Assembly: GCA_025611195.1 (NCBI GenBank)
Contig: GCA_025611195.1_4718.2
From: a phage
Length of the DNA stretch: 64,000 bases
Reading direction: 5' to 3' (one strand)
The notes beneath the pieces were generated by a model that worked only from the letters and a program-made list of their open reading frames with translations, ran no database searches and was not told the origin of the DNA. Shown here piece by piece: positions 19,216-54,688 of this stretch. The translations under genes were made by a program, and so were the position numbers. Position 1 is the stretch's first letter; each line of letters begins with the position of its first letter.

Positions 19216-19814
19216 TACTTAGGTTCCAGTATTGGTCCGAACAACCAGAATGTCAGACGCTGGTAAACCTGTTCGATGACGGCGGCTTCTGTTTGCTCTT
19301 CTAGTGCTTTCCCTTTCTTATGTTGTATTTCTGGCGGGATGTCTCCGCTGTAAACATACTCTGTTGAGAAGTCCCACGCCAACCGTTTACCGAAAGTGGG
19401 TAAGAACACCTCTTCGAATCGGAACGCTTTCGAATTCCAATGAAGCAGCTGATCGGATTCAACATGTAAAGCTTTATTACGTTTGCTTGGCATGTTTCCG
19501 AAGTACTGAACGATAGCTGATTTCATAACCCGATCGACGAAGTCTTTGGCTTCGGCCTCATCGAGGGGAGGCAAGCGATGCGACAGATTCAACTTACGTT
19601 GTTCGATATCGATCTTACGCATTGCTTTAATCAAATCACTAGGGACGATTTTACCTTTATGTCCTTCCTGTCGGTGTACGAAACACCCCTGGAATAGCAC
19701 GCAAAGTTCTTGAGGTGCGGTACTTTCCATTCGTCCGTAAGCAACGATCACCGAACGTCGACGGTCAATAACTTCACGGATAAACCGCGGCTCAGTAATA
19801 CTCACCACTGTCAT
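19215..19814 (-). CDS. hypothetical protein
   Basis: 199-aa ORF. Confidence 0.5.
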   Translation of the reverse strand: MTVVSITEPRFIREVIDRRRSVIVAYGRMESTAPQELCVLFQGCFVHRQEGHKGKIVPSDLIKAMRKIDIEQRKLNLSHRLPPLDEAEAKDFVDRVMKSAIVQYFGNMPSKRNKALHVESDQLLHWNSKAFRFEEVFLPTFGKRLAWDFSTEYVYSGDIPPEIQHKKGKALEEQTEAAVIEQVYQRLTFWLFGPILEPK

Positions 19815-19858
19815 TTAAAGCCCTCTTTATCTTTTTCCATTTCTCTTTACATAACCAA

Positions 19859-20545
19859 TTAAGACGTCGCCATCTTATCTTCCAGAGACTTCTTCGGTAA
19901 ACCATGGATAACTCCTTCCGGGGTTAAGAACACACAGTCTGGATTCTGCGTTCGTGAGCGGTCGTCTGGACTGTTCAACGAGAACAGCAACGCAGAAATA
20001 CCTTTCGTCCGATTTAATGCCGCTACGATCACATCAAGCTGTCGCAGCGCATCCGACACCGTTCGATGAGGAACAATACGTGACTGTTTGAAGCTGGCTA
20101 ACCGCCAAGTCTCGAACAAACAACGTAGTTTAAACACGTCGGACGGAATAGCAGTAGATCCCTGTTCGATAACCTCAACACGATCAGCTTCAGGATAACC
20201 TACAGCAACCGCACTAAAGTGTCTTACCCCATTATGAAAATCATCGATAGATGCTTCGGCGTATTTACATACCGTACCAGAAACGACCATCACTTTTGCT
20301 AAACCGCGATAATTGATCGTCAATGGAATACGAAATACGCGCAAAGCATGTTCTGGATTTAATGAGACGTCGTTAACCTTTGTTGCGGTCAACTTACCAC
20401 GCTCGTAACGTGCGGTGAACGGCAGCCCGTCATAAACGGGATTAATCACAACGCCCCCTGGGGAGGCGTTAGCGTTAAGATGGACATTAAGCCAATCGGA
20501 TACTTCCTGTCTACTAGTTACGATTAACATAAAACGGTCCTCCAT
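19859..20545 (-). CDS. hypothetical protein
   Basis: Start moved to ATG 20545 (AAAGGAAAAG upstream), which removes the overlap with the methyltransferase gene. Confidence 0.5.
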   Translation of the reverse strand: MEDRFMLIVTSRQEVSDWLNVHLNANASPGGVVINPVYDGLPFTARYERGKLTATKVNDVSLNPEHALRVFRIPLTINYRGLAKVMVVSGTVCKYAEASIDDFHNGVRHFSAVAVGYPEADRVEVIEQGSTAIPSDVFKLRCLFETWRLASFKQSRIVPHRTVSDALRQLDVIVAALNRTKGISALLFSLNSPDDRSRTQNPDCVFLTPEGVIHGLPKKSLEDKMATS

Positions 20546-20555
20546 TTCTTTTCCT

Positions 20556-21206
20556 TTATTCATGACGAGTATCTTCCAAATCATCCCTTTGTTTTGTAAA
20601 TTCTGATTGCTTGCGATAAACCGTCCATGAATCGTATATGCCGTGAAAGTTCAAATGACGTGCATTTAAGTTAACGGTGAATTCTTCCACAGAGGAGAAA
20701 TCCGAACGAAGCATCGAATGGAAGGCGTCATCTCCGGTGCAGCCCCCGTATCCCTCACCCTGATAGATCAAAAGCTGATGTGGTTGAATACGCGCGGCAA
20801 CCAACGCAGCTTGTGGTTCGTCGTAAGGTGGCCATGACAGTAAAATAACATCGTACTGTGAAAGATCGATGTTTGTGTAGTCGACCTGCTGAATGTCCTC
20901 GATAAACGGATGGGGATGTACTTTAATATCGTACGCGGTAACATCCTCTACACCGAGTTTACGCAGGACGTAAGTCAGGTAACCTGTCCCACAACCCAAG
21001 TCAGCGACGCGTCGCCCGTAACAGATGTTCGCTAACTGGAGCGCGGTATCCATAGTTAACAACGACCATCCAACGCGTTGTGTGTATTCTTCACGTACAT
21101 CCCATTGTTGATGGAACGTCATGGGTTCTATGATATTAGCAAGCTGCTGGTACGGCAACGGCATTTTGGTTTCGCCTTGCGTGAGTAAAGCAATAACATC
21201 GTTCAT
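20556..21206 (-). CDS. SAM-dependent methyltransferase (Rossmann fold), substrate unknown
   Basis: Motif I VADLGCGTGY, then about 45 aa later ILLSWPPY, resembling the (D/N/S)PPY motif IV of amino-methyltransferases. Start moved to ATG 21206 (AAGGAAAC upstream). Confidence 0.65.
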   Translation of the reverse strand: MNDVIALLTQGETKMPLPYQQLANIIEPMTFHQQWDVREEYTQRVGWSLLTMDTALQLANICYGRRVADLGCGTGYLTYVLRKLGVEDVTAYDIKVHPHPFIEDIQQVDYTNIDLSQYDVILLSWPPYDEPQAALVAARIQPHQLLIYQGEGYGGCTGDDAFHSMLRSDFSSVEEFTVNLNARHLNFHGIYDSWTVYRKQSEFTKQRDDLEDTRHE

Positions 21207-21223
21207 TTTGTTTCCTTTTATCA

Positions 21224-21249
21224 GCATAAACCCTCCCATACCGGGAGGG
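21224..21249 (-). promoter_or_regulatory. stem-loop CCCTCCC-ATACC-GGGAGGG followed on the minus strand by TTTATGCTG
   Basis: Perfect 7-bp stem at 21231..21249 just after the stop of 21255..21683; TTTATGC at 21224..21230 (minus), 15 nt before the methyltransferase Shine-Dalgarno. Confidence 0.55.
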
Positions 21250-21254
21250 CACGA

Positions 21255-21683
21255 TTATTCATTTTCAATAACTTTAAGATTCGGTGTACCGAGCGTTTTC
21301 TTCACCAACGCCTCAGCAATGCGTTTCTCGATGAAATCGGTCGCATTGCTTCCGTCTATCGTACGCATATCACCACGGAAATTGTTGAAGACCATAAACA
21401 AGTCACACCCGTCGATAGGTATCGCAAGATCGTAACTGACTTGTGATGCGGTGAAATGGACGCCAACGACAACGGCGGGAACGAATTCAACCGCCATGTT
21501 ATCTCCTTCTTCTCCGGTTCCGAATGGAAGTTCAACACGATCGCCGATAGAGAATTGAGTGACATCATTAATTGCGTTCGTTAATGCAATTCGTTGCATG
21601 TTAGCGATATTTTCATTATTCGCACCACAAGGTAGATCCAGGACTTCTTCCAATGTGAAGAATTTACGATCGAACCAGCTCAT
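21255..21683 (-). CDS. hypothetical protein
   Basis: 142-aa ORF. Confidence 0.5.
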   Translation of the reverse strand: MSWFDRKFFTLEEVLDLPCGANNENIANMQRIALTNAINDVTQFSIGDRVELPFGTGEEGDNMAVEFVPAVVVGVHFTASQVSYDLAIPIDGCDLFMVFNNFRGDMRTIDGSNATDFIEKRIAEALVKKTLGTPNLKVIENE

Positions 21684-21684
21684 G

Positions 21685-22218
21685 TTAATCTCCTTTGTGT
21701 TTTACGGACGATGTTAACCACGATGATCTTACAGTGAAACCCTCAGACTCGTAGAACGCCTGGGCTTCATCGTTATCGGCACGAACATCCAGGCCGATAG
21801 AATGCCCACCACATCGGTAAGCGATGTTACGTGCTTCATTCATCAAGGCGTGGCCGATCCCGCGTCCACGGTATTCCGGTTTTACAACAATCGATGTAAC
21901 ATCGTGAATGCCCATTTGGCTCTCTGTATTCACTTCCAAGAGGCCTACTGGTATCGAAGCGATGGCGTCGATCATAACGACCAACTTTGCGGTGTCCGGT
22001 AAACGCTTCTCTAATTCTAAGGCATCGTACTCGCGTTTTAAATCGGGGATATTCTCAAACATAAACGTGGTAGCCCATGCCTCTGATTCTACATCGTCGA
22101 GAATACGGTACAGCTCACGAATCTGTCGTTTATGCGGGTAAAGGTGTGGATCGGCAGCCGTTGAGGCGATAACGCAATAGAACGGCCGTTCATTAATAAC
22201 TACTGTTTTGATGCTCAC
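21685..22218 (-). CDS. GNAT-family N-acetyltransferase
   Basis: Acetyl-CoA binding motif VVKPEYRGRGIGHALMNEA and C-terminal AQAFYESEGF. Confidence 0.75.
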   Translation of the reverse strand: MSIKTVVINERPFYCVIASTAADPHLYPHKRQIRELYRILDDVESEAWATTFMFENIPDLKREYDALELEKRLPDTAKLVVMIDAIASIPVGLLEVNTESQMGIHDVTSIVVKPEYRGRGIGHALMNEARNIAYRCGGHSIGLDVRADNDEAQAFYESEGFTVRSSWLTSSVKHKGD

Positions 22219-22721
22219 GCTAAAATTCCCTCATTACCTAACAGTCGATTACGGTGACGTCGGTACATTTGACAAAGTGTTGTGATTTGATAAAGTTTGT
22301 TATAACGTAATTCGATACGTTTTTGCACCTCTTTCCATGAAAGTTTATCGTATTGCCGATAACGATGAATTTCATTCAACATACGAAGACGAGTAGGATC
22401 GGTATTCTTTATTGTTGTGAGCTTCACGCGTTGGTATCCACGCTGTAGTCCCGATTCAGAATACGTGACGCCAAACTCATCTTGAATGGTAGTAATTATC
22501 TCCCGCCATCGGCGCTTCTCGCCGTCACGTAAATGGACAACCCGCGATAAGATATCGTTCCGATTACGATGACTCAGTTTAATGTTAAGCATTGAAGCAA
22601 TCGCGCTGATTGCTCTCTGACTCCGCCCTAACGCTTCACCGATCTCTTTCGATGTCATGACGCCAGCGTTTCGGCGTATGAATGCGATTTCGGTTGTTGT
22701 GTATTCTTTACCTGCTGCCAT
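22215..22721 (-). CDS. Myb/GcrA-like HTH protein, tandem paralog 1
   Basis: Repeat YTTTEIAFIRRNAGVMTSKEIGEALGRSQRAISAIASML plus C-terminal W..I....EF......Y motif. ATGA overlap with the next gene. Confidence 0.6.
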   Translation of the reverse strand: MAAGKEYTTTEIAFIRRNAGVMTSKEIGEALGRSQRAISAIASMLNIKLSHRNRNDILSRVVHLRDGEKRRWREIITTIQDEFGVTYSESGLQRGYQRVKLTTIKNTDPTRLRMLNEIHRYRQYDKLSWKEVQKRIELRYNKLYQITTLCQMYRRHRNRLLGNEGILA

Positions 22722-23185
22722 TTTTTACCACGCGTGTTATAATAGTAACGCTGACAAAGATGTGTGTGATGGTACTCCCGTTTGAACTCGACATTGATAA
22801 TGCGAGTAACTTCTCTCCATCTGACCCCTTCATGTCGCAGTGCTGTGATACGGTCTGAAATTTTGCACCATTCATCTGGGTCGTATCGTCGCAGTTTATG
22901 GCGTCGTATTACGGAGGCGACACTCGCTCTCGATCGGCCAAGATGGTTTGACAGTTGTTTAACCGAGTATCTGTGGATATTGTCGCGAATATAGGAAATC
23001 TCGTTGTCCGTATATGCCTCATTGGTTCTTGACGAAGGGAACAACATATACAACTTATTCTTAATCGCGCTTTCTGTGCGTTGAAACACGGTAACCAGAT
23101 CACTAATCGGTGGTCTGGGTATCTGATCCGCGTAATTCTCGAGGCGTGAGAGTTCCTCATCTGTCCAGCGGCGGTACTTGCGCAT
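22655..23185 (-). CDS. Myb/GcrA-like HTH protein, tandem paralog 2
   Basis: Start moved to ATG 23185 (AAGGAG upstream). Repeats RRWTDEELSRL... and YTDNEISYIRDN...LSNHLGRSRASVASVIRRHKL. Confidence 0.7.
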   Translation of the reverse strand: MRKYRRWTDEELSRLENYADQIPRPPISDLVTVFQRTESAIKNKLYMLFPSSRTNEAYTDNEISYIRDNIHRYSVKQLSNHLGRSRASVASVIRRHKLRRYDPDEWCKISDRITALRHEGVRWREVTRIINVEFKREYHHTHLCQRYYYNTRGKKWQQVKNTQQPKSHSYAETLAS

Positions 23186-23660
23186 GGGCAACTCCTTTGT
23201 TTTTCGTGTAATAGCACCAACGTTGATACAACGCATGTTTATTCGTTGTAATCCCAAATTTAACAACAACGTCGTATGTGATAATATTCCAATTTTGGGT
23301 GACGTTAAGTCGTTCCGCGATAAACGCGATAATCGCTTCCCGTTCTTGCTTGGTTAACGCACGACGAATTCCATTAAGTCGTATAAACTGACGAACCGAG
23401 TCATACGAACGGTTTAAATCATACGCAATCTCCCGCAACGATTTTTGTCTGATTACAGACTTGATGTACGCACGTTCTTCTTCCGTATACGGTCGATGCT
23501 TCTGGCGTTGACGTATTCCCAAACGCCCCAGACACGCGTCGATGCTGGCGCGTGTTCGTCCTGCCTGTTGCGCGATTTCATCAATCGTCAGCGACGTGTT
23601 CAAGTACAGATGTGTAACATCTTTTAACTCATCGTTACGCCACGGCCGAGGTCGTCCCAT
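23157..23660 (-). CDS. Myb/GcrA-like HTH protein, tandem paralog 3
   Basis: RPWRNDELKDV...IDEIAQQAGRTRASIDACLGRL and YTEEERAYIKSV...IAYDLNRSYDSVRQFIRL. AAGAGGGA before ATG. Confidence 0.7.
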   Translation of the reverse strand: MGRPRPWRNDELKDVTHLYLNTSLTIDEIAQQAGRTRASIDACLGRLGIRQRQKHRPYTEEERAYIKSVIRQKSLREIAYDLNRSYDSVRQFIRLNGIRRALTKQEREAIIAFIAERLNVTQNWNIITYDVVVKFGITTNKHALYQRWCYYTKNKGVAHAQVPPLDR

Positions 23661-24138
23661 CTTGTATCCCTCTTTTCTTTCTATGATGCCACCAACGCTG
23701 ATAAACAGCTTGCTTCGTACGTGTTATGCCAAAATGCGCATTAACCCGTTCAGCAATGTGGTACCAATCCTGCGTTTCTTCTAACAATGCATCAACGAAG
23801 GCTATGAAGATCTTAGTATCATCCTCGCTTAACCGCTTGAAGCCATGGCGGTGTGCTATTGTTCGAATACTGTTTGGATCTCTGTTTAAATCGCGCGCAA
23901 GCTGTTTGTAACTTTTGTGCTTACAGTGTAGTCTGATATGTTCCAATTCATCGTCGCTGAAACGTTTATGCGGTTTACGGCGTTCGACGTTTAAGTACCT
24001 CAACCTTGATTCGATTGCTCCATACGTCGTTTCCATGATTTCCGCGATTTCACGGATTTTCAATTTCGGACGACGGTCGTACAATTTCAGCAACTGTTCG
24101 TCGTACTGACGATTCCATCGTCGTATAGGTGGTCTCAC
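23635..24138 (-). CDS. Myb/GcrA-like HTH protein, tandem paralog 4
   Basis: GTG start at 24138 with AGGAGAA upstream. RRWNRQYDEQLLKLY...IAEIMETTYGAIESRLRYL and FSDDELEHIRLH...LARDLNRDPNSIRTIAHRH. Confidence 0.65.
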   Translation of the reverse strand: MRPPIRRWNRQYDEQLLKLYDRRPKLKIREIAEIMETTYGAIESRLRYLNVERRKPHKRFSDDELEHIRLHCKHKSYKQLARDLNRDPNSIRTIAHRHGFKRLSEDDTKIFIAFVDALLEETQDWYHIAERVNAHFGITRTKQAVYQRWWHHRKKRGIQDGTTSAVA

Positions 24139-24151
24139 AACTAAGATTCTC

Positions 24152-24619
24152 CTATTCTACGCGTCTTAATGCCTGAGTGTAGTAAAGAGTATGAACTCCG
24201 CTTAACGTGTAATGGGTGTTAAATTCTTTATTGATGATATTCCGTATTCTCTCCCAGGTTTTCTTCTCTTTTCTAAGAGTATGTATTCGGTGATAAATCA
24301 TCTCTCGACGTTGCGCCTTGCATGCGACGATGCCGTAGCGGTAGCAGAGTTTAGCGATCGCGTCCACGCTACGATTGAACATTACCGCGGCTTCTTTCAC
24401 GCTGTGCGTCTTGAGATAATCGGCTAACATTACCCGCTCTTCGAAACAACAATAGCGATGACGCGACATGAGTTTCCAACGCTTGCGATTGCGGTTAATT
24501 CGACCTTGAACCGAACCTTCCGTTCGGCCAAGCCGTACCGCAATCTCTTGCATCGGGATACCGTTTCGATAGAGGGTAATCAACAACGCATCTTCTTCGG
24601 GTGTCCAGTCCTTGACCAT
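24152..24619 (-). CDS. Myb/GcrA-like HTH protein, tandem paralog 5
   Basis: KDWTPEEDALLITLYRNGIPMQEIAVRLGRTEGSVQGRINRN resembles the GcrA N-terminal HTH (WTDE...L...G.S...IA..LG..RNAVIGK..RL). GGGGTGG before ATG. Confidence 0.7.
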   Translation of the reverse strand: MVKDWTPEEDALLITLYRNGIPMQEIAVRLGRTEGSVQGRINRNRKRWKLMSRHRYCCFEERVMLADYLKTHSVKEAAVMFNRSVDAIAKLCYRYGIVACKAQRREMIYHRIHTLRKEKKTWERIRNIINKEFNTHYTLSGVHTLYYTQALRRVE

Positions 24620-24631
24620 AATGCCACCCCA

Positions 24632-27292
<2,661 letters not shown>

Positions 27293-51110: not shown

Positions 51111-52685
51111 TTACAATTCAAAATCTTCATCGATAACGCGCTGGGTAAGCACTTTGTCGCTGAAGAACTCCACCTTGCGCTGATGGTATTTACGATGCGC
51201 TTCGATAGAAGTACATACCAGATACCAGAAGGTTGGCGTCATTCCTTCAAACTTCCCTTTCAGCTGACGCAGTCGCCCCAACACCTGAATGTTACCGGTT
51301 CGTGACCCCATCGCTAACGTCATGAACGCCATCACCAAGTCAGGAAGGTCGATACCCGTACCTGCCGATTTCACCGTCGTAACGCTAATATCGTTATCCA
51401 ACAAGACCATGAAATCTTCTTCAGCCGTATAAGGACCGATCTCTAACTCAGGAATACGTTCACTAAGGTAATGCGACAACGACTTACACATATCGACGGT
51501 TGCACAATACACCAGCATCTTCATACCTTCCTGATACTGGTTCATGAAACCTTTGATGATAACCGTATAGATGAAGTTAAAATACGCGAGTTTGAGTTGC
51601 TTGTTCTTCATGATAGACTGTTCGAATATCGTGTGAGAATAAGAACCCCCAAACCCTTTATATCTGACTTTATCTGTACTGCGTAGTCGATACGTCACGG
51701 CATTTACCGCAATGTATTTCTTGTATTCGCCTTTCGCATAACGGGCTTCTTTCGGATACATCAAATACAACATCCGCTCGATGAACGGATCATCGGACAC
51801 CGCCGTTGCTGACAGATAGATGATTTCCGGAATACTAGCGTAACACTTGACCTTAAACAAGAAATGCAATGCTTCATGGCACTCGTCATGAATCAGAAGG
51901 CCTATGCCGGTCTTTTCCCAAAACTCAGCGGGATGGAAGGCATATGGCGCAACGCAGTTATTCTTCTCGTAGTCCGCAATATAACGTTGGAACATGTTCA
52001 AGGAGAACAATGCGATTTTGAAGTCGAGTTCGCCTTGTTCAACCAAGGTTTGAAACTCCAACATACTGTAACGAGGAATGTCAGGATGCGGTGGATCCTC
52101 CTTAGCGTTCCCGCGTATCTCGATAACATCCCCTGGTTCCATCCCGAAGAAGTTCAGTAGTGAGCTTCGCCAACCTGGCATGTATCTCGGCGACAGAATG
52201 ATACCCGTCCGCACACCGCGTCGGAAGGTAATCTCCTGCGACATGGCCGTTTTTCCCGACCCCGTTTGAGCGGTGTTTAGGCTCATTCTGAAGGGGGTAT
52301 CCTTACCCCCGTCCATGTACTCCAACCATTCTTGCTGATCTTCACGCCATGGGAACTTCCATTTCTTTACGAACTCCACTTCTTTACCTGGTGCCGGATC
52401 GTGGTAAACGATTTCCAACCACTCTTTTCGTATCCCTCGGGAAAAGATAAAATCCAAAAACGATTTCAACTGTTCGCGGAGTAAGTATACCTCACTATAA
52501 TCGCTTCTTGCCGCGGCATACGTGTTTATGGTATCGGTAACCATTCTCCGTGTACGAGGGTCGCGCCGTTTCCTCAGATGCAAACAACGGTCTCGAAGGT
52601 AATGGCCGATAAGATGGGCAAATCGAAGTCCGTATCCGCTCAGCCTCATGCCGTGCGAGAAGACATCGATACGAGCTAACTTCAT
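51111..52685 (-). CDS. SF2 DExH-box helicase
   Basis: Motif I QTGSGKT, motif II LLIHDECH, motif III YLSATAV, motif VI-like QVLGRLRQ. ATGA overlap with the upstream gene. Confidence 0.75.
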   Translation of the reverse strand: MKLARIDVFSHGMRLSGYGLRFAHLIGHYLRDRCLHLRKRRDPRTRRMVTDTINTYAAARSDYSEVYLLREQLKSFLDFIFSRGIRKEWLEIVYHDPAPGKEVEFVKKWKFPWREDQQEWLEYMDGGKDTPFRMSLNTAQTGSGKTAMSQEITFRRGVRTGIILSPRYMPGWRSSLLNFFGMEPGDVIEIRGNAKEDPPHPDIPRYSMLEFQTLVEQGELDFKIALFSLNMFQRYIADYEKNNCVAPYAFHPAEFWEKTGIGLLIHDECHEALHFLFKVKCYASIPEIIYLSATAVSDDPFIERMLYLMYPKEARYAKGEYKKYIAVNAVTYRLRSTDKVRYKGFGGSYSHTIFEQSIMKNKQLKLAYFNFIYTVIIKGFMNQYQEGMKMLVYCATVDMCKSLSHYLSERIPELEIGPYTAEEDFMVLLDNDISVTTVKSAGTGIDLPDLVMAFMTLAMGSRTGNIQVLGRLRQLKGKFEGMTPTFWYLVCTSIEAHRKYHQRKVEFFSDKVLTQRVIDEDFEL

Positions 52686-54688
52686 AACGTGAATACATCC
52701 TCCGGTTTAGGTTCTTTGCGCGGTAAAAGCATGTAGTCGATCGGATGATCCGGCTTCATGGTTGGGATATAACTGTTCGGGTTTTGGAACGCATCCAGTT
52801 GCTCTTGGTGAGCGAACTTCATACTCAAGGAGCGCATGTTCATGTTCTTCTTGAAGGTGCTGAAGTATCGTGTTGTTCCCTGTTTCGGCATGCGATAATC
52901 TTTCGTGTGTGGCGAACGAATCATGCTGGCGTAGAGAATAACATCGAGATGCGAAAGGTTCATTCGCAGACGCTGTGCGCACAAGCGATGCCAATAGTAC
53001 AGCACGTTTGCAACTTCTTCCGGTGTTGCTTCGTCTTCCGAGAGGAACCCGGCACTGAAAGAACCTTTCCCGAATTTGAACTCACGTTCGATTTCTTTTG
53101 CGTATTCCATCATGTTTTTGTGGATTAACGGCATCTGGAATAACGTACGTGAATTGTCCCAATGTTTCAAGTCGAAAATCACAATCCCGTCAGACGTCAC
53201 TTCCCAGCTATGGCGTTTAAGATAACGGATAAACGCTTTACTCGGTACAACAGGACGTCCGCAGAAATCGAAATTGACTTTGAGCTTACGATAGCTTTCA
53301 TCTTTCCTGTCGTAAATCTCCATATCGCAAAGCGTCATGTTAAACAGACGCTGTGGTATCAGCGAACTGATTTCTTCCGCTTCGGCTACATCGTACAACA
53401 TGTTCGCAAGACCTAACTTCATCTTAATCAGCACGTGTTTACCTTTCAGCTCACGTGCGAGTTTGATGTCGTTCATGTTCTGGCTGTAACGAAGGATATG
53501 TTGATATTCCGGTGGGATTGGTGCTGTAGAGACCGTTGACGAACCGTCGTGGTGTTTGGTAGAAAGAATGTTCTGCGTTACCTGTTGCGAGCAGGTACGC
53601 GCTGCGCCATCGCCGACATTATCGGTTAATGCGAAGTTATGACTTAATTCACCATAACACGTTGTGCATACCCCAGCAGGATCGGGATGATGACAATAGT
53701 TAACGGAGCGCATACGCACTGTGGTGCCGATCAATTCTTTCATATGTGGTTGTATCGCTACCAACGAACCGTCATCACGAATAATGAATCGGCCGTGGAA
53801 GCCACGCAGGTCGGTCTCATCACGGATTGGCATCGGGATGGTCTCTCTACTACCACAATCACCAGGATGTAGTCGTTGCACAACCGCTGTCGCTATCTGA
53901 AGTTCACGACCGAAATATTCAGACTTTTTAATCTGCTCTTTGTTGAACAGCAACGATTTCGCCGCAGAACGACTTTCTTTCAAGCTGTCGGGAAGAGAGA
54001 TCAAACCTGACGCGTACGACCGCATTACTGGATCACGGAATATCTCGGAGTTAATATCGGTCAAGAATCCACGCATCCCAATACACTGCAGCACCTGCCC
54101 AATCGAAACGTGTTCGGTTCTTACCGCACGTGCAATAGGGTTTGCATGTAATGTTTTATCGGTGCTCAGTACCTTTGTCAGTTTCTTGTATGCGCTTTCG
54201 ATACCTTCGCGGGTGGGTTCCGCTTCAGCGATGATTTTCTTAACTTCGGGGTGTACGGTAATCTGATAAAAATCATCCGCACAAATAGTTGTTACGTATT
54301 CCTCCAACGCATACGTAAAGAAGTTATACACGTTGTTAAACATATCGAACAGTGCTTTCCAGAGAACCTCACGATTCTCTTGTGGGTAAGCATACATGCA
54401 TTGACGATACGCTGCGCTTTGCAACGCTACCGATGAACCCGCTGTAAACTTACGTTTATCAACCAGGTTCTCTTTTGTCAATGGTGTCTCAGGATACATG
54501 CGATGTACAGACCAGTGCATGTAACTAAAGAAAATGCGTCGCGCACGTAATTCATGAACGCCATCGTCCATCTCGATATATACACGGTCATTAGGCTGTG
54601 CCCACTCGAATACCTCATCAACCGGCCAGTGCATAAGCTCGCGTGCCCTCACACGACGTTTCGTGGTGGTCGTCTGTGTTGTAGTCAT
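52682..54688 (-). CDS. RNA polymerase beta'-like subunit, C-terminal fragment (multisubunit phage RNAP)
   Basis: Colinear similarity to bacterial beta' region F through the trigger loop: CIGMRGFLTDINSEIF (beta' AGMRGLMAKPDGSIIE), bridge-helix-like SRSAAKSLL, VRMRSVNYCHHPDPAGVCTTCYGEL (beta' [22 protein letters not shown]). No NADFDGD motif, so the N-terminal part is encoded elsewhere. Confidence 0.7.
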   Translation of the reverse strand: MTTTQTTTTKRRVRARELMHWPVDEVFEWAQPNDRVYIEMDDGVHELRARRIFFSYMHWSVHRMYPETPLTKENLVDKRKFTAGSSVALQSAAYRQCMYAYPQENREVLWKALFDMFNNVYNFFTYALEEYVTTICADDFYQITVHPEVKKIIAEAEPTREGIESAYKKLTKVLSTDKTLHANPIARAVRTEHVSIGQVLQCIGMRGFLTDINSEIFRDPVMRSYASGLISLPDSLKESRSAAKSLLFNKEQIKKSEYFGRELQIATAVVQRLHPGDCGSRETIPMPIRDETDLRGFHGRFIIRDDGSLVAIQPHMKELIGTTVRMRSVNYCHHPDPAGVCTTCYGELSHNFALTDNVGDGAARTCSQQVTQNILSTKHHDGSSTVSTAPIPPEYQHILRYSQNMNDIKLARELKGKHVLIKMKLGLANMLYDVAEAEEISSLIPQRLFNMTLCDMEIYDRKDESYRKLKVNFDFCGRPVVPSKAFIRYLKRHSWEVTSDGIVIFDLKHWDNSRTLFQMPLIHKNMMEYAKEIEREFKFGKGSFSAGFLSEDEATPEEVANVLYYWHRLCAQRLRMNLSHLDVILYASMIRSPHTKDYRMPKQGTTRYFSTFKKNMNMRSLSMKFAHQEQLDAFQNPNSYIPTMKPDHPIDYMLLPRKEPKPEDVFTL

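Follow-up and report, generated by a model that had tools for sequence, protein, structure and literature searches.

The 64,000-nucleotide phage DNA analysed here (contig GCA_025611195.1_4718.2 of the NCBI GenBank assembly GCA_025611195.1; the whole stretch is hereafter called the window) carries on its minus strand, at 20556..21227, a gene for a methyltransferase with an atypical WPPY motif, and a GNAT acetyltransferase is encoded one gene away. The question raised by this locus is what such an enzyme modifies, with an earlier note on the same DNA having left the choice among DNA, RNA and protein unclear, and whether it works together with its neighbour. The gene is a member of a solid, widespread and uncharacterised enzyme family that has an unusual active-site signature. 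The best explanation, which we hold tentatively, is a class I methyltransferase of a viral family for which a target in the translation apparatus is favoured, tRNA being the first candidate.

Residue numbers throughout refer to the longest methyltransferase frame (227 amino acids, 20556-21239, minus strand, upstream ATG at 21239). Translation almost certainly begins at the second ATG (21227), because a Shine-Dalgarno sequence, GGGAGGG, lies 5 nt upstream of it. The resulting product of 223 amino acids matches the annotation of its orthologue gp111 (YP_009820796; 90% amino acid identity) in Escherichia phage vB_EcoM_Goslar, where it is described as a class I S-adenosylmethionine (SAM)-dependent methyltransferase. 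Comparison of the two orthologues revealed 37 synonymous and 21 non-synonymous codon differences, none of them at motif residues, and the gene is thus under constraint.

The SAM-binding glycine loop after strand 1 is formed by motif I, VADLGCGTGY (residues 78-87, 20979..21008, minus strand). It is followed 47 residues later, close to the spacing of about 45 given in the earlier note, by SWPPY (residues 135-139, 20823..20837, minus strand), which lies right behind strand 4, in the place of motif IV. Between them, Asp104 (20928..20930, minus strand) marks the end of strand 2 (motif II). In class I methyltransferases an acidic residue ending this strand generally contacts the hydroxyl groups of the SAM ribose, and by analogy Asp104 is expected to do the same. 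A third segment, GEGYGGCTGDD (residues 161-171, 20727..20759, minus strand), occupies the motif VI position and comprises the end of strand 5 and the next loop. It had escaped the earlier note and is, as judged from its conservation, a second and equally diagnostic motif with an invariant Glu and Cys.

Conservation was quantified in 190 diverse family representatives. In motif I the glycines G82, G84 and G86 are conserved at 95-99% (G84 at 99%) and Y87 at 95%, and in the WPPY segment W136 is retained in 189 of the 190 members (99%), P137 in 99%, P138 in 89% and Y139 in 97%. The GEGxGGCTGDD loop is equally constant (E162 100%, G166 98%, C167 99%, T168 93%, D170 86%), and further conserved positions are R49 (96%), D104 (99%), F173 (95%) and D203 (97%). 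In a separate alignment of 47 relatives collected by a word-indexed search, D104, W136, P137, Y139, G161, E162, G166, C167, G169 and D170 are invariant. The residue preceding W136 can be C, S, A, N, T, M or V. Because this Ser position varies while the Trp is invariant, the family signature read from the alignments is W-P-(P)-Y together with GEGxGGCTGDD, and not S-PPY.

The AlphaFold2 model built from the family alignment (predicted local distance difference test score 88.6, predicted template modelling score 0.85) consists of four N-terminal helices (~55 residues) and a seven-strand class I core of roughly 165 amino acids. Its strands 1 to 7 are formed by residues 78-81, 100-104, about 117-118, 131-135, 156-161, 181-183 and 204-210, respectively. 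Since strand 4 ends at residue 135, WPPY is found at the motif IV position; Glu162 closes strand 5 at the motif VI position, Cys167 is in the next loop, 6 residues past the strand, and Asp203 precedes strand 7. No target-recognition or other extra domain is present in the model beyond the core and the N-terminal helices, and many family members are just 175-200 amino acids long. Members of the class I superfamily are recognised by a glycine-rich motif I, an acidic end of strand 2 and a seven-stranded alpha/beta core superposable on those of known methyltransferases; all three features are present, and as modelled the protein is a class I (Rossmann-fold) SAM-dependent methyltransferase, small and stand-alone. 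A functional SAM site is further supported by a viral homologue (L049:3498-5390, IMGVR_UViG_3300037845_000029) in which a class 1 intein of ~400 amino acids is inserted exactly inside motif I (GAG | C...HN | TGYWA), because inteins typically occupy essential motifs. This intein starts with Cys, contains a LAGLIDADG-like block, MIGIMIADGDS, and is followed by Thr at the +1 position.

To relate the WPPY segment to enzymes of known class, the profile of the 190 sequences was compared by HH-suite with 18 methyltransferases of Escherichia coli K-12, each used as a single-sequence template. The highest probabilities were obtained for UbiG (84.6%), PrmC (83.7%, E-value 8e-6), TehB (82.9%), PrmA (75.1%), YfiC (64.8%) and Pcm (58.9%), followed by RlmE (21.9%), RsmC (19.5%), PrmB (5.8%) and TrmA (3.1%); all other enzymes of the panel remained below 2% (Dcm 0.6%, RsmB 0.4%, YhdJ 0.2%; RsmD, RlmJ and YhdJ all below 1%). 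In these alignments W136-P-P-Y139 is in exact register with the motif IV of amino-methyltransferases, the Trp being placed on N183 of PrmC, N122 of YfiC, N268 of RsmC, N207 of PrmB, D164 of RlmJ and D40 of YhdJ. By position WPPY is thus motif IV, in which the hydrogen-bond acceptor is swapped for an aromatic residue. The resemblance of SWPPY to (D/N/S)PPY proposed in the earlier note stands as far as the motif IV position and the register with NPPY, DPPY and NPPF are concerned; it does not extend to the Ser, which is variable, the place of D/N/S being held by the Trp.

The P-P-(Y/F) that amino-methyltransferases have after strand 4 is present in the family, and their first residue, D, N or S, is replaced by Trp. 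The defining feature of these enzymes is therefore missing, and a related mode of action may still be possible. To our knowledge, this position is held by Asp, Asn or Ser in all PPY methyltransferases characterised so far. The family shares with the HemK/PrmC-type enzymes (PrmC, PrmB, YfiC/TrmN6, RsmC and RlmJ; Pfam MTS PF05175) the class I fold, the spacing of motifs I to IV and the PPY register, and with PrmC an N-terminal helical extension ahead of the Rossmann core. It differs from them in the invariant Trp and in the Glu162/Cys167 loop, which those enzymes lack. The chemistry or the acceptor probably differs from the classical transfer to N6-adenine, N4-cytosine or Gln-N5, since Asp or Asn can serve as hydrogen-bond acceptor for the amino group of the target and Trp cannot.

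The lists of fold matches include Mtq2, PrmA, METTL21A/B/D, FAM86A, Trm14, TrmN and METTL5. When the family profile was compared with PDB sequences, matches were limited to the motif I/II region (best E-value about 1e-4) with one exception, the tRNA m1G37 methyltransferase Trm5b (5yac), which is the sole PDB chain aligned from motif I through strand 5 (E-value 0.005); a profile of the C-terminal half found no PDB sequence even at E<=10. In the comparison with Trm5/Trm5b the xWPPY of the family is placed on NLPKY, both having a hydrophobic residue ahead of the Pro, and WPPY genes are to some extent found close to tRNA genes. In contrast, the family has a variable residue opposite the Asn of NLP, and the D1/D2 tRNA-binding domains are absent from the family protein.

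The family is large, mostly viral or metagenomic, and has neither a specific Pfam or NCBIfam model nor a description in the literature searched. A profile search of 1.84 billion representative proteins gave 8,418 matches at E<=1e-3, 6,279 at E<=1e-10 and 2,441 at E<=1e-30. Pfam returned only generic matches covering residues 60-133 (FtsJ at 24.7 bits with a cut-off of 24.1, and Methyltransf_23), and no NCBIfam model came near its cut-off. The protein is a member of PHROG 19090 (E-value 2.3e-18, residues 46-209 on profile positions 32-190 of 191), which is labelled 'unknown function'. Literature searches on the family motifs and on Goslar gp111, including work on the Goslar structure, core-genome studies and jumbo-phage reviews, found nothing relevant. 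What is already known is that the fold is ordinary and that the gene is generically annotated in RefSeq; no description was found in these searches of the family as such, of the invariant Trp at the first position of motif IV or of the invariant Glu/Cys loop.

A tblastn search of 50,697 phage records detected the gene in 33 of them. The carriers are Goslar, jumbo phages of Aeromonas, Klebsiella, Serratia, Salmonella, Xanthomonas, Stenotrophomonas and Pseudomonas, a 462-kb uncultured phage, and the haloarchaeal viruses PhiCh1, phiH and HGTV-1. IMG/VR contributed 50 loci, many of them on contigs of 100-480 kb, and metagenomes at least 214 further loci. Among 185,579 species genomes (one per species) 8 loci were found, all in metagenome-assembled genomes (MAGs), a count obtained with a single peptide pattern and thus too low. 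The viral structure library BFVD contains, besides phage members, relatives from giant viruses (Gaeavirus, Harvfovirus, Bodo saltans virus, Hokovirus, Fadolivirus and others) at E-values from 3e-10 to 1e-7. The family is therefore probably present in giant eukaryotic viruses, and it may span the viruses of all three domains of life. The GEGxGGCTGDD stretch was also observed on a giant-virus MAG contig (L062, GVMAG-M-3300005613-25).

The domain is fused to other modules in several proteins. In three bacterial MAGs (L006:4021-6561, L008:3967-6582 and L007:4036-6495) it forms the C-terminus of TPR proteins of 820-926 amino acids, and a TPR fusion is also seen in P0066 and P0072. The three MAG proteins, from Obscuribacterales and a Proteobacteria MAG, have an unrecognised N-terminal region of ~450 amino acids followed by TPR_10/TPR_12 repeats; this region is Ala/Ser/Gly-rich in the two Obscuribacterales proteins, and none of the three contains a Walker A motif. 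The TPR fusions suggest a macromolecular partner for the WPPY domain. Other architectures are a GNAT-WPPY fusion (P0087, metagenomic, 313 amino acids), a NADAR-WPPY fusion (P0094, 337 amino acids), and tandem WPPY copies (P0049/P0052), two in a low-complexity protein of 610 amino acids that is eukaryote- or giant-virus-like and four in a protein of 1,932 amino acids. A short Cys/His-rich N-terminal extension (AHCT…x7…CTCGWxSP) that resembles a zinc-binding module was noticed in P0036, P0037, P0040 and P0043.

Proximity to tRNA genes was analysed with ARAGORN in 51 loci, nine of which have a tRNA within 5 kb (8 of 50 after restriction to non-redundant viral and MAG loci) and four within 700 nt. 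The most striking case is the haloarchaeal virus HGTV-1 (L078, NC_021328, 39847-50320), where the WPPY gene resides inside a co-directional array of 25 tRNA genes in a 10.5-kb stretch and is the only functionally annotated coding sequence within it. In another locus (L009:5740-6513) the WPPY open reading frame (ORF) begins 3 nt past a tRNA. The tRNA-adjacent WPPY proteins are mutually 35-51% identical and hence do not represent one lineage. As a control we used 120 random IMG/VR loci retrieved by an arbitrary 14-mer, of which 4 have a tRNA within 5 kb and none within 700 nt (Fisher p = 0.006 and p = 0.007, respectively). A second, independent set of 80 metagenome loci added 6 new loci with tRNAs, and the rate per kb scanned over both sets is ~3.3 times that of the control (combined p = 0.019). 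The enrichment is modest but real-looking, and it could reflect either function or the clustering of accessory genes in tRNA islands. A WPPY gene inside or adjoining tRNA genes was likewise seen in L041, L025 and L045, which are unrelated viruses.

The earlier note had also drawn attention to the GNAT gene (Goslar gp113; 21685..22218, minus strand, 177 amino acids) and to the location of both enzymes downstream of a helix-turn-helix (HTH) paralog array. This gene order is confirmed, and the GNAT assignment is solid: the product matches Pfam Acetyltransf_1 (PF00583) at 2e-14, with 54.3 bits against a gathering cut-off of 20.7, and contains the acetyl-CoA-binding motif RGRGIG within YRGRGIGHAL. 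Its best NCBIfam match is RimI (TIGR01575); gp113 shares with RimI-like proteins the GNAT fold and the acetyl-CoA motif, but its score of 55.4 bits is under the curated cut-off of 86.4.

A link between the two enzymes did not hold up. Homologues of gp113 occur in Serratia and Klebsiella phages of ~275-305 kb, in OBP and in others, most of which have no methyltransferase, and Aeromonas phages carry the methyltransferase and no gp113-type GNAT. In the four Klebsiella/Serratia phages (~300 kb) that encode both, the genes are ~195 kb apart, and a jackhmmer search for GNATs near the methyltransferase found them in the Goslar lineage only. The neighbour genes of the window recur, by phmmer, only in Goslar-like genomes; all-against-all BLAST clustering of ~50 loci identified no neighbour family common beyond close relatives; and a Pfam scan of 148 neighbours from ~50 loci found no family more than three times (HNH endonuclease 3/148, GNAT 2/148 plus one of the Mec-17 type). 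The adjacency is thus a feature of the Goslar lineage and not a system, and the GNAT is a co-transcribed neighbour whose distribution does not support a functional partnership. A methyltransferase-GNAT module was rejected on these differing distributions, the GNAT part of the fusion P0087 being only generically similar to gp113. From the lack of a conserved neighbour gene it follows that the methyltransferase works solo.

Taken together, we lean towards the translation apparatus because of the proximity to tRNA genes, the matches to Trm5b, YfiC, PrmC and PrmA, the presence of Trm14, TrmN, Mtq2 and METTL5 among the fold matches, and the TPR fusions. The acceptor side of the active site, as suggested by conservation, would be defined by Trp136-Pro-Pro-Tyr139, Glu162/Cys167 and Asp203. 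The WPPY segment would form an aromatic surface on which a planar acceptor is held, be it a flipped base or an amide, and the Glu162/Cys167 loop would supply catalytic or recognition groups. The acceptor would be a universally conserved component of the translation apparatus, in the first place a tRNA and in the second a translation factor or ribosomal protein, and the virus might tune host or virus-encoded tRNAs through this methyltransferase. RNA, that is tRNA, as the actual target is possible, though doubtful.

Several observations weigh against a target in the translation apparatus. No class or substrate assignment is statistically secure: the Foldseek matches to PDB are weak (best E-value 6e-5, template modelling scores below 0.5), and the HH-suite signal stems from the SAM-binding half, so that amino-methyltransferases are not separated from small-molecule enzymes. 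Residues W136, E162 and C167 would surround the methyl donor in a placement taken from strand topology alone. The family is acidic (median isoelectric point 5.35), which is atypical for RNA-binding enzymes, though TrmA is acidic too; charge was dropped as an indicator of nucleic-acid binding on account of both facts. The control contigs are smaller than those of the family, and the tRNA enrichment is not significant (p = 0.30) when only those control loci are considered of which 9 kb or more was scanned (2/24). The nearest tRNA is tRNA-Ile(UAU) in three loci of the first set and in none of the new loci of the metagenome set, and this tRNA was dropped as a specific partner. No tRNA genes were found near the Goslar-like, Aeromonas, Miami and PhiCh1 loci or in the whole 64-kb window, accessory genes quite generally gather in tRNA islands, and the homologue in PhiCh1 directly follows two DNA methyltransferase genes.

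Of the alternatives to a tRNA target, a protein methyltransferase resembling HemK/PrmC or METTL21 and acting on a host or phage protein such as a release factor, a ribosomal protein or RNA polymerase, survives best, and we regard it as somewhat unlikely. PrmC is among the top matches of the panel (84%, with WPPY on NPPY) and has a similar layout, PrmA follows at 75%, and Mtq2, PrmA, METTL21A/B/D and FAM86A are all among the fold matches. The position of the domain behind TPR repeats in the three MAG proteins and in P0066/P0072, its fusion to a GNAT in P0087 and an acidic isoelectric point like that of PrmC would also suit such an enzyme. In the Goslar lineage it might even have its target in common with the GNAT, RimI being the best named match of the latter. 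However, Trp would be unable to replace the Asn that binds the glutamine amide, and the panel signal comes from the SAM-binding half and is equalled by UbiG and TehB. The argument from the neighbour suffers from the restriction of the adjacency to one lineage with no co-inheritance, from the RimI score under its curated cut-off, and from the generic relation of the P0087 GNAT part to gp113 (E-value 0.002 over 41 residues).

A small-molecule or nucleotide methyltransferase, which would act on a metabolite, the nucleotide pool or a host signalling nucleotide, with GEGxGGCTGDD binding phosphate or metal and W136/Y139 sandwiching a ring, is unlikely in our estimation. It would agree with the minimal single domain, the acidic surface and the life of the gene as a solo accessory, with the NADAR fusion P0094, which provides a link to NAD/ADP-ribose chemistry, and with the panel values of UbiG (85%) and TehB (83%). 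These matches are no better than those to macromolecule-modifying enzymes, and UbiG, TehB, the halide methyltransferase 8ajp and ToxA, which match via the SAM-binding half, have neither a PPY after strand 4 nor the GEGxGGCTGDD loop. PPY behind strand 4 is typically a mark of enzymes directed at bases or amides, and the TPR fusions and the tRNA proximity point to macromolecules. The earlier note had named, as the result that would speak against its reading, a structure that places the protein in a small-molecule class and shows nothing of an amino-methyltransferase. This was not the outcome: in the profile and structure comparisons UbiG, TehB and the halide methyltransferase score equally with amino-methyltransferases, and the PPY register is kept.

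DNA was among the targets named in the earlier note; a DNA amino-methyltransferase (for N6-adenine or N4-cytosine) whose motif IV is degenerate and which would shield phage DNA from restriction appears improbable. The PPY is in register with the DPPY of YhdJ and RlmJ and the NPPY of YfiC, orphan DNA methyltransferases are common as solo viral genes, and the PhiCh1 homologue is located directly after two genes for such enzymes. On the other hand, an invariant Trp stands where such enzymes have their defining D/N/S, the protein is acidic, and the HH-suite probability for YhdJ is 0.2%. The model contains no target-recognition domain, and its ~165-residue core with helices is smaller than the characterised DNA amino-methyltransferases; no full match to a curated defence or restriction-modification system and no recurrent nuclease partner were found either. 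PADLOC gave partial matches only, to mad2 (7.7e-7, residues 74-136) and to MTase_II (2e-5, residues 66-139, thus reaching the Tyr of the WPPY segment), which lend this idea some weak support; membership in a defence system was rejected for their partial nature. In addition, Goslar is described as replicating inside a protein nucleus that excludes restriction enzymes, so the need for such protection would be low.

A covalent C5-pyrimidine methyltransferase of the 5-methyluridine or 5-methylcytosine type, acting on RNA or DNA, is likewise improbable. Cys167 would attack C6 of a flipped pyrimidine, Glu162 would protonate or deprotonate the ring, and WPPY would stack the base. Both residues are as invariant as the SAM-binding ones (Cys167 99%, Glu162 100%), and the layout is similar to known ones: the RNA 5-methyluridine enzymes TrmA/RumA have DPPR after strand 4 and a nucleophilic Cys (SCNP) after strand 5, the RNA 5-methylcytosine enzymes (RsmB) have TCS after strand 5, and the DNA 5-methylcytosine enzymes (Dcm/M.HhaI) have PC, and ENV ending strand 5. 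The likeness thus consists of Pro-Pro behind strand 4 and of an invariant Cys and Glu, the Cys in the loop that follows strand 5 and the Glu ending that strand; in the TrmA alignment P137-P138 are placed on P300-P301 (of DPPR) and C167 on the catalytic C324, and the modest tRNA adjacency is compatible with such an activity. Against this, that alignment has an HH-suite probability of 3% and RsmB and Dcm are below 1%, so there is no significant profile similarity; the Cys is 6 residues past the strand and not 1-2; and no TRAM, PUA, target-recognition or other RNA- or DNA-binding domain is present in the model. TehB and YfiC carry a non-catalytic Cys at the same aligned position, so a coincidence is cheap, and an invariant Cys could equally be structural or metal-binding.

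The boldest form of a tRNA-directed reading is that the WPPY/GEGxGGCTGDD proteins constitute a new catalytic class across bacterial, archaeal and eukaryotic viruses, in which the aromatic Trp-Pro-Pro-Tyr would stand in for the hydrogen-bonding (D/N)PPY and Glu162/Cys167 would perform a covalent (Michael-type) pyrimidine transfer, or another non-classical transfer, on tRNA, by which large viruses would retune host or viral tRNAs in the course of infection; we consider this improbable. The chance that the target is something other than RNA, protein, a small molecule or nucleotide, or DNA is slim.

The surroundings of the gene are those of a Goslar-like phage. The region 19800-22800 is 92.6% identical at the nucleotide level to Goslar, a 237-kb jumbo phage, and every gene in it is on the minus strand. 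At least four more Goslar-like genomes of 237-240 kb (L013, L199, L200 and L201) were encountered in IMG/VR and public metagenomes, with 89-95% amino acid identity of the methyltransferase; the window is nearest to L013, with the same gene order, and not identical to it. Between the GNAT and the methyltransferase lies a gene for a protein of 142 amino acids (21255..21683, minus strand), a homologue of gp112, annotated as hypothetical in Goslar. Its product has no match in Pfam, PHROG, NCBIfam or PADLOC, and its homologues are confined to Goslar, with a weak match in Erwinia phage Bue1. Downstream of the methyltransferase, the counterpart of gp110 (19859-20584, minus strand), a basic protein with an isoelectric point of 9.0, has no detected domain and no homologue beyond Goslar-like phages; in its longest frame it overlaps the 3' end of the methyltransferase gene by 29 nt. 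Directly upstream in the direction of transcription is the HTH-like array (22215-24952, minus strand; gp114-gp120), which consists of six or seven paralogous ORFs. The first of these matches PHROG 323 'transcriptional regulator, D5-like' (1.3e-10), and one member is annotated in Goslar as a SANT/Myb domain protein. Beyond the array, farther from the methyltransferase, lies an NAD-dependent DNA ligase (gp121 in the Goslar annotation; 24945-27011).

Between the gp112 stop and the methyltransferase start, the sequence CCCTCCC-GGUAU-GGGAGGG (21231..21249, minus strand) can form a hairpin with a 7-bp GC-rich stem (minimum free energy -16.5 kcal/mol, z = -2.8), the 3' arm of which is the Shine-Dalgarno sequence. 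The stem is unchanged and the loop variable in Goslar and L013, and this hairpin may regulate translation of the methyltransferase. Within the window the methyltransferase is the only ORF that combines a motif I with a PPY-type motif. A frame of 531 amino acids at 51114-52706 (minus strand) contains the tetrapeptide DPPH and no motif I, and is probably unrelated to methyltransferases.

For the phage of the window, the gene encodes an accessory enzyme conserved among Goslar-like phages, and its pairing with a GNAT is not to be read as a system. For the family, the invariant Trp and the Glu/Cys loop suggest an acceptor or a chemistry outside the current rules for motif IV, of which these proteins provide a useful test. 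If the weak association with tRNA genes is true, the family would represent a widespread virus-encoded tRNA-modifying enzyme, relevant to the takeover of translation by large viruses. Identification of the target would assign a function to several thousand unannotated viral and metagenomic proteins, including those of jumbo phages, haloarchaeal viruses and probably giant viruses.

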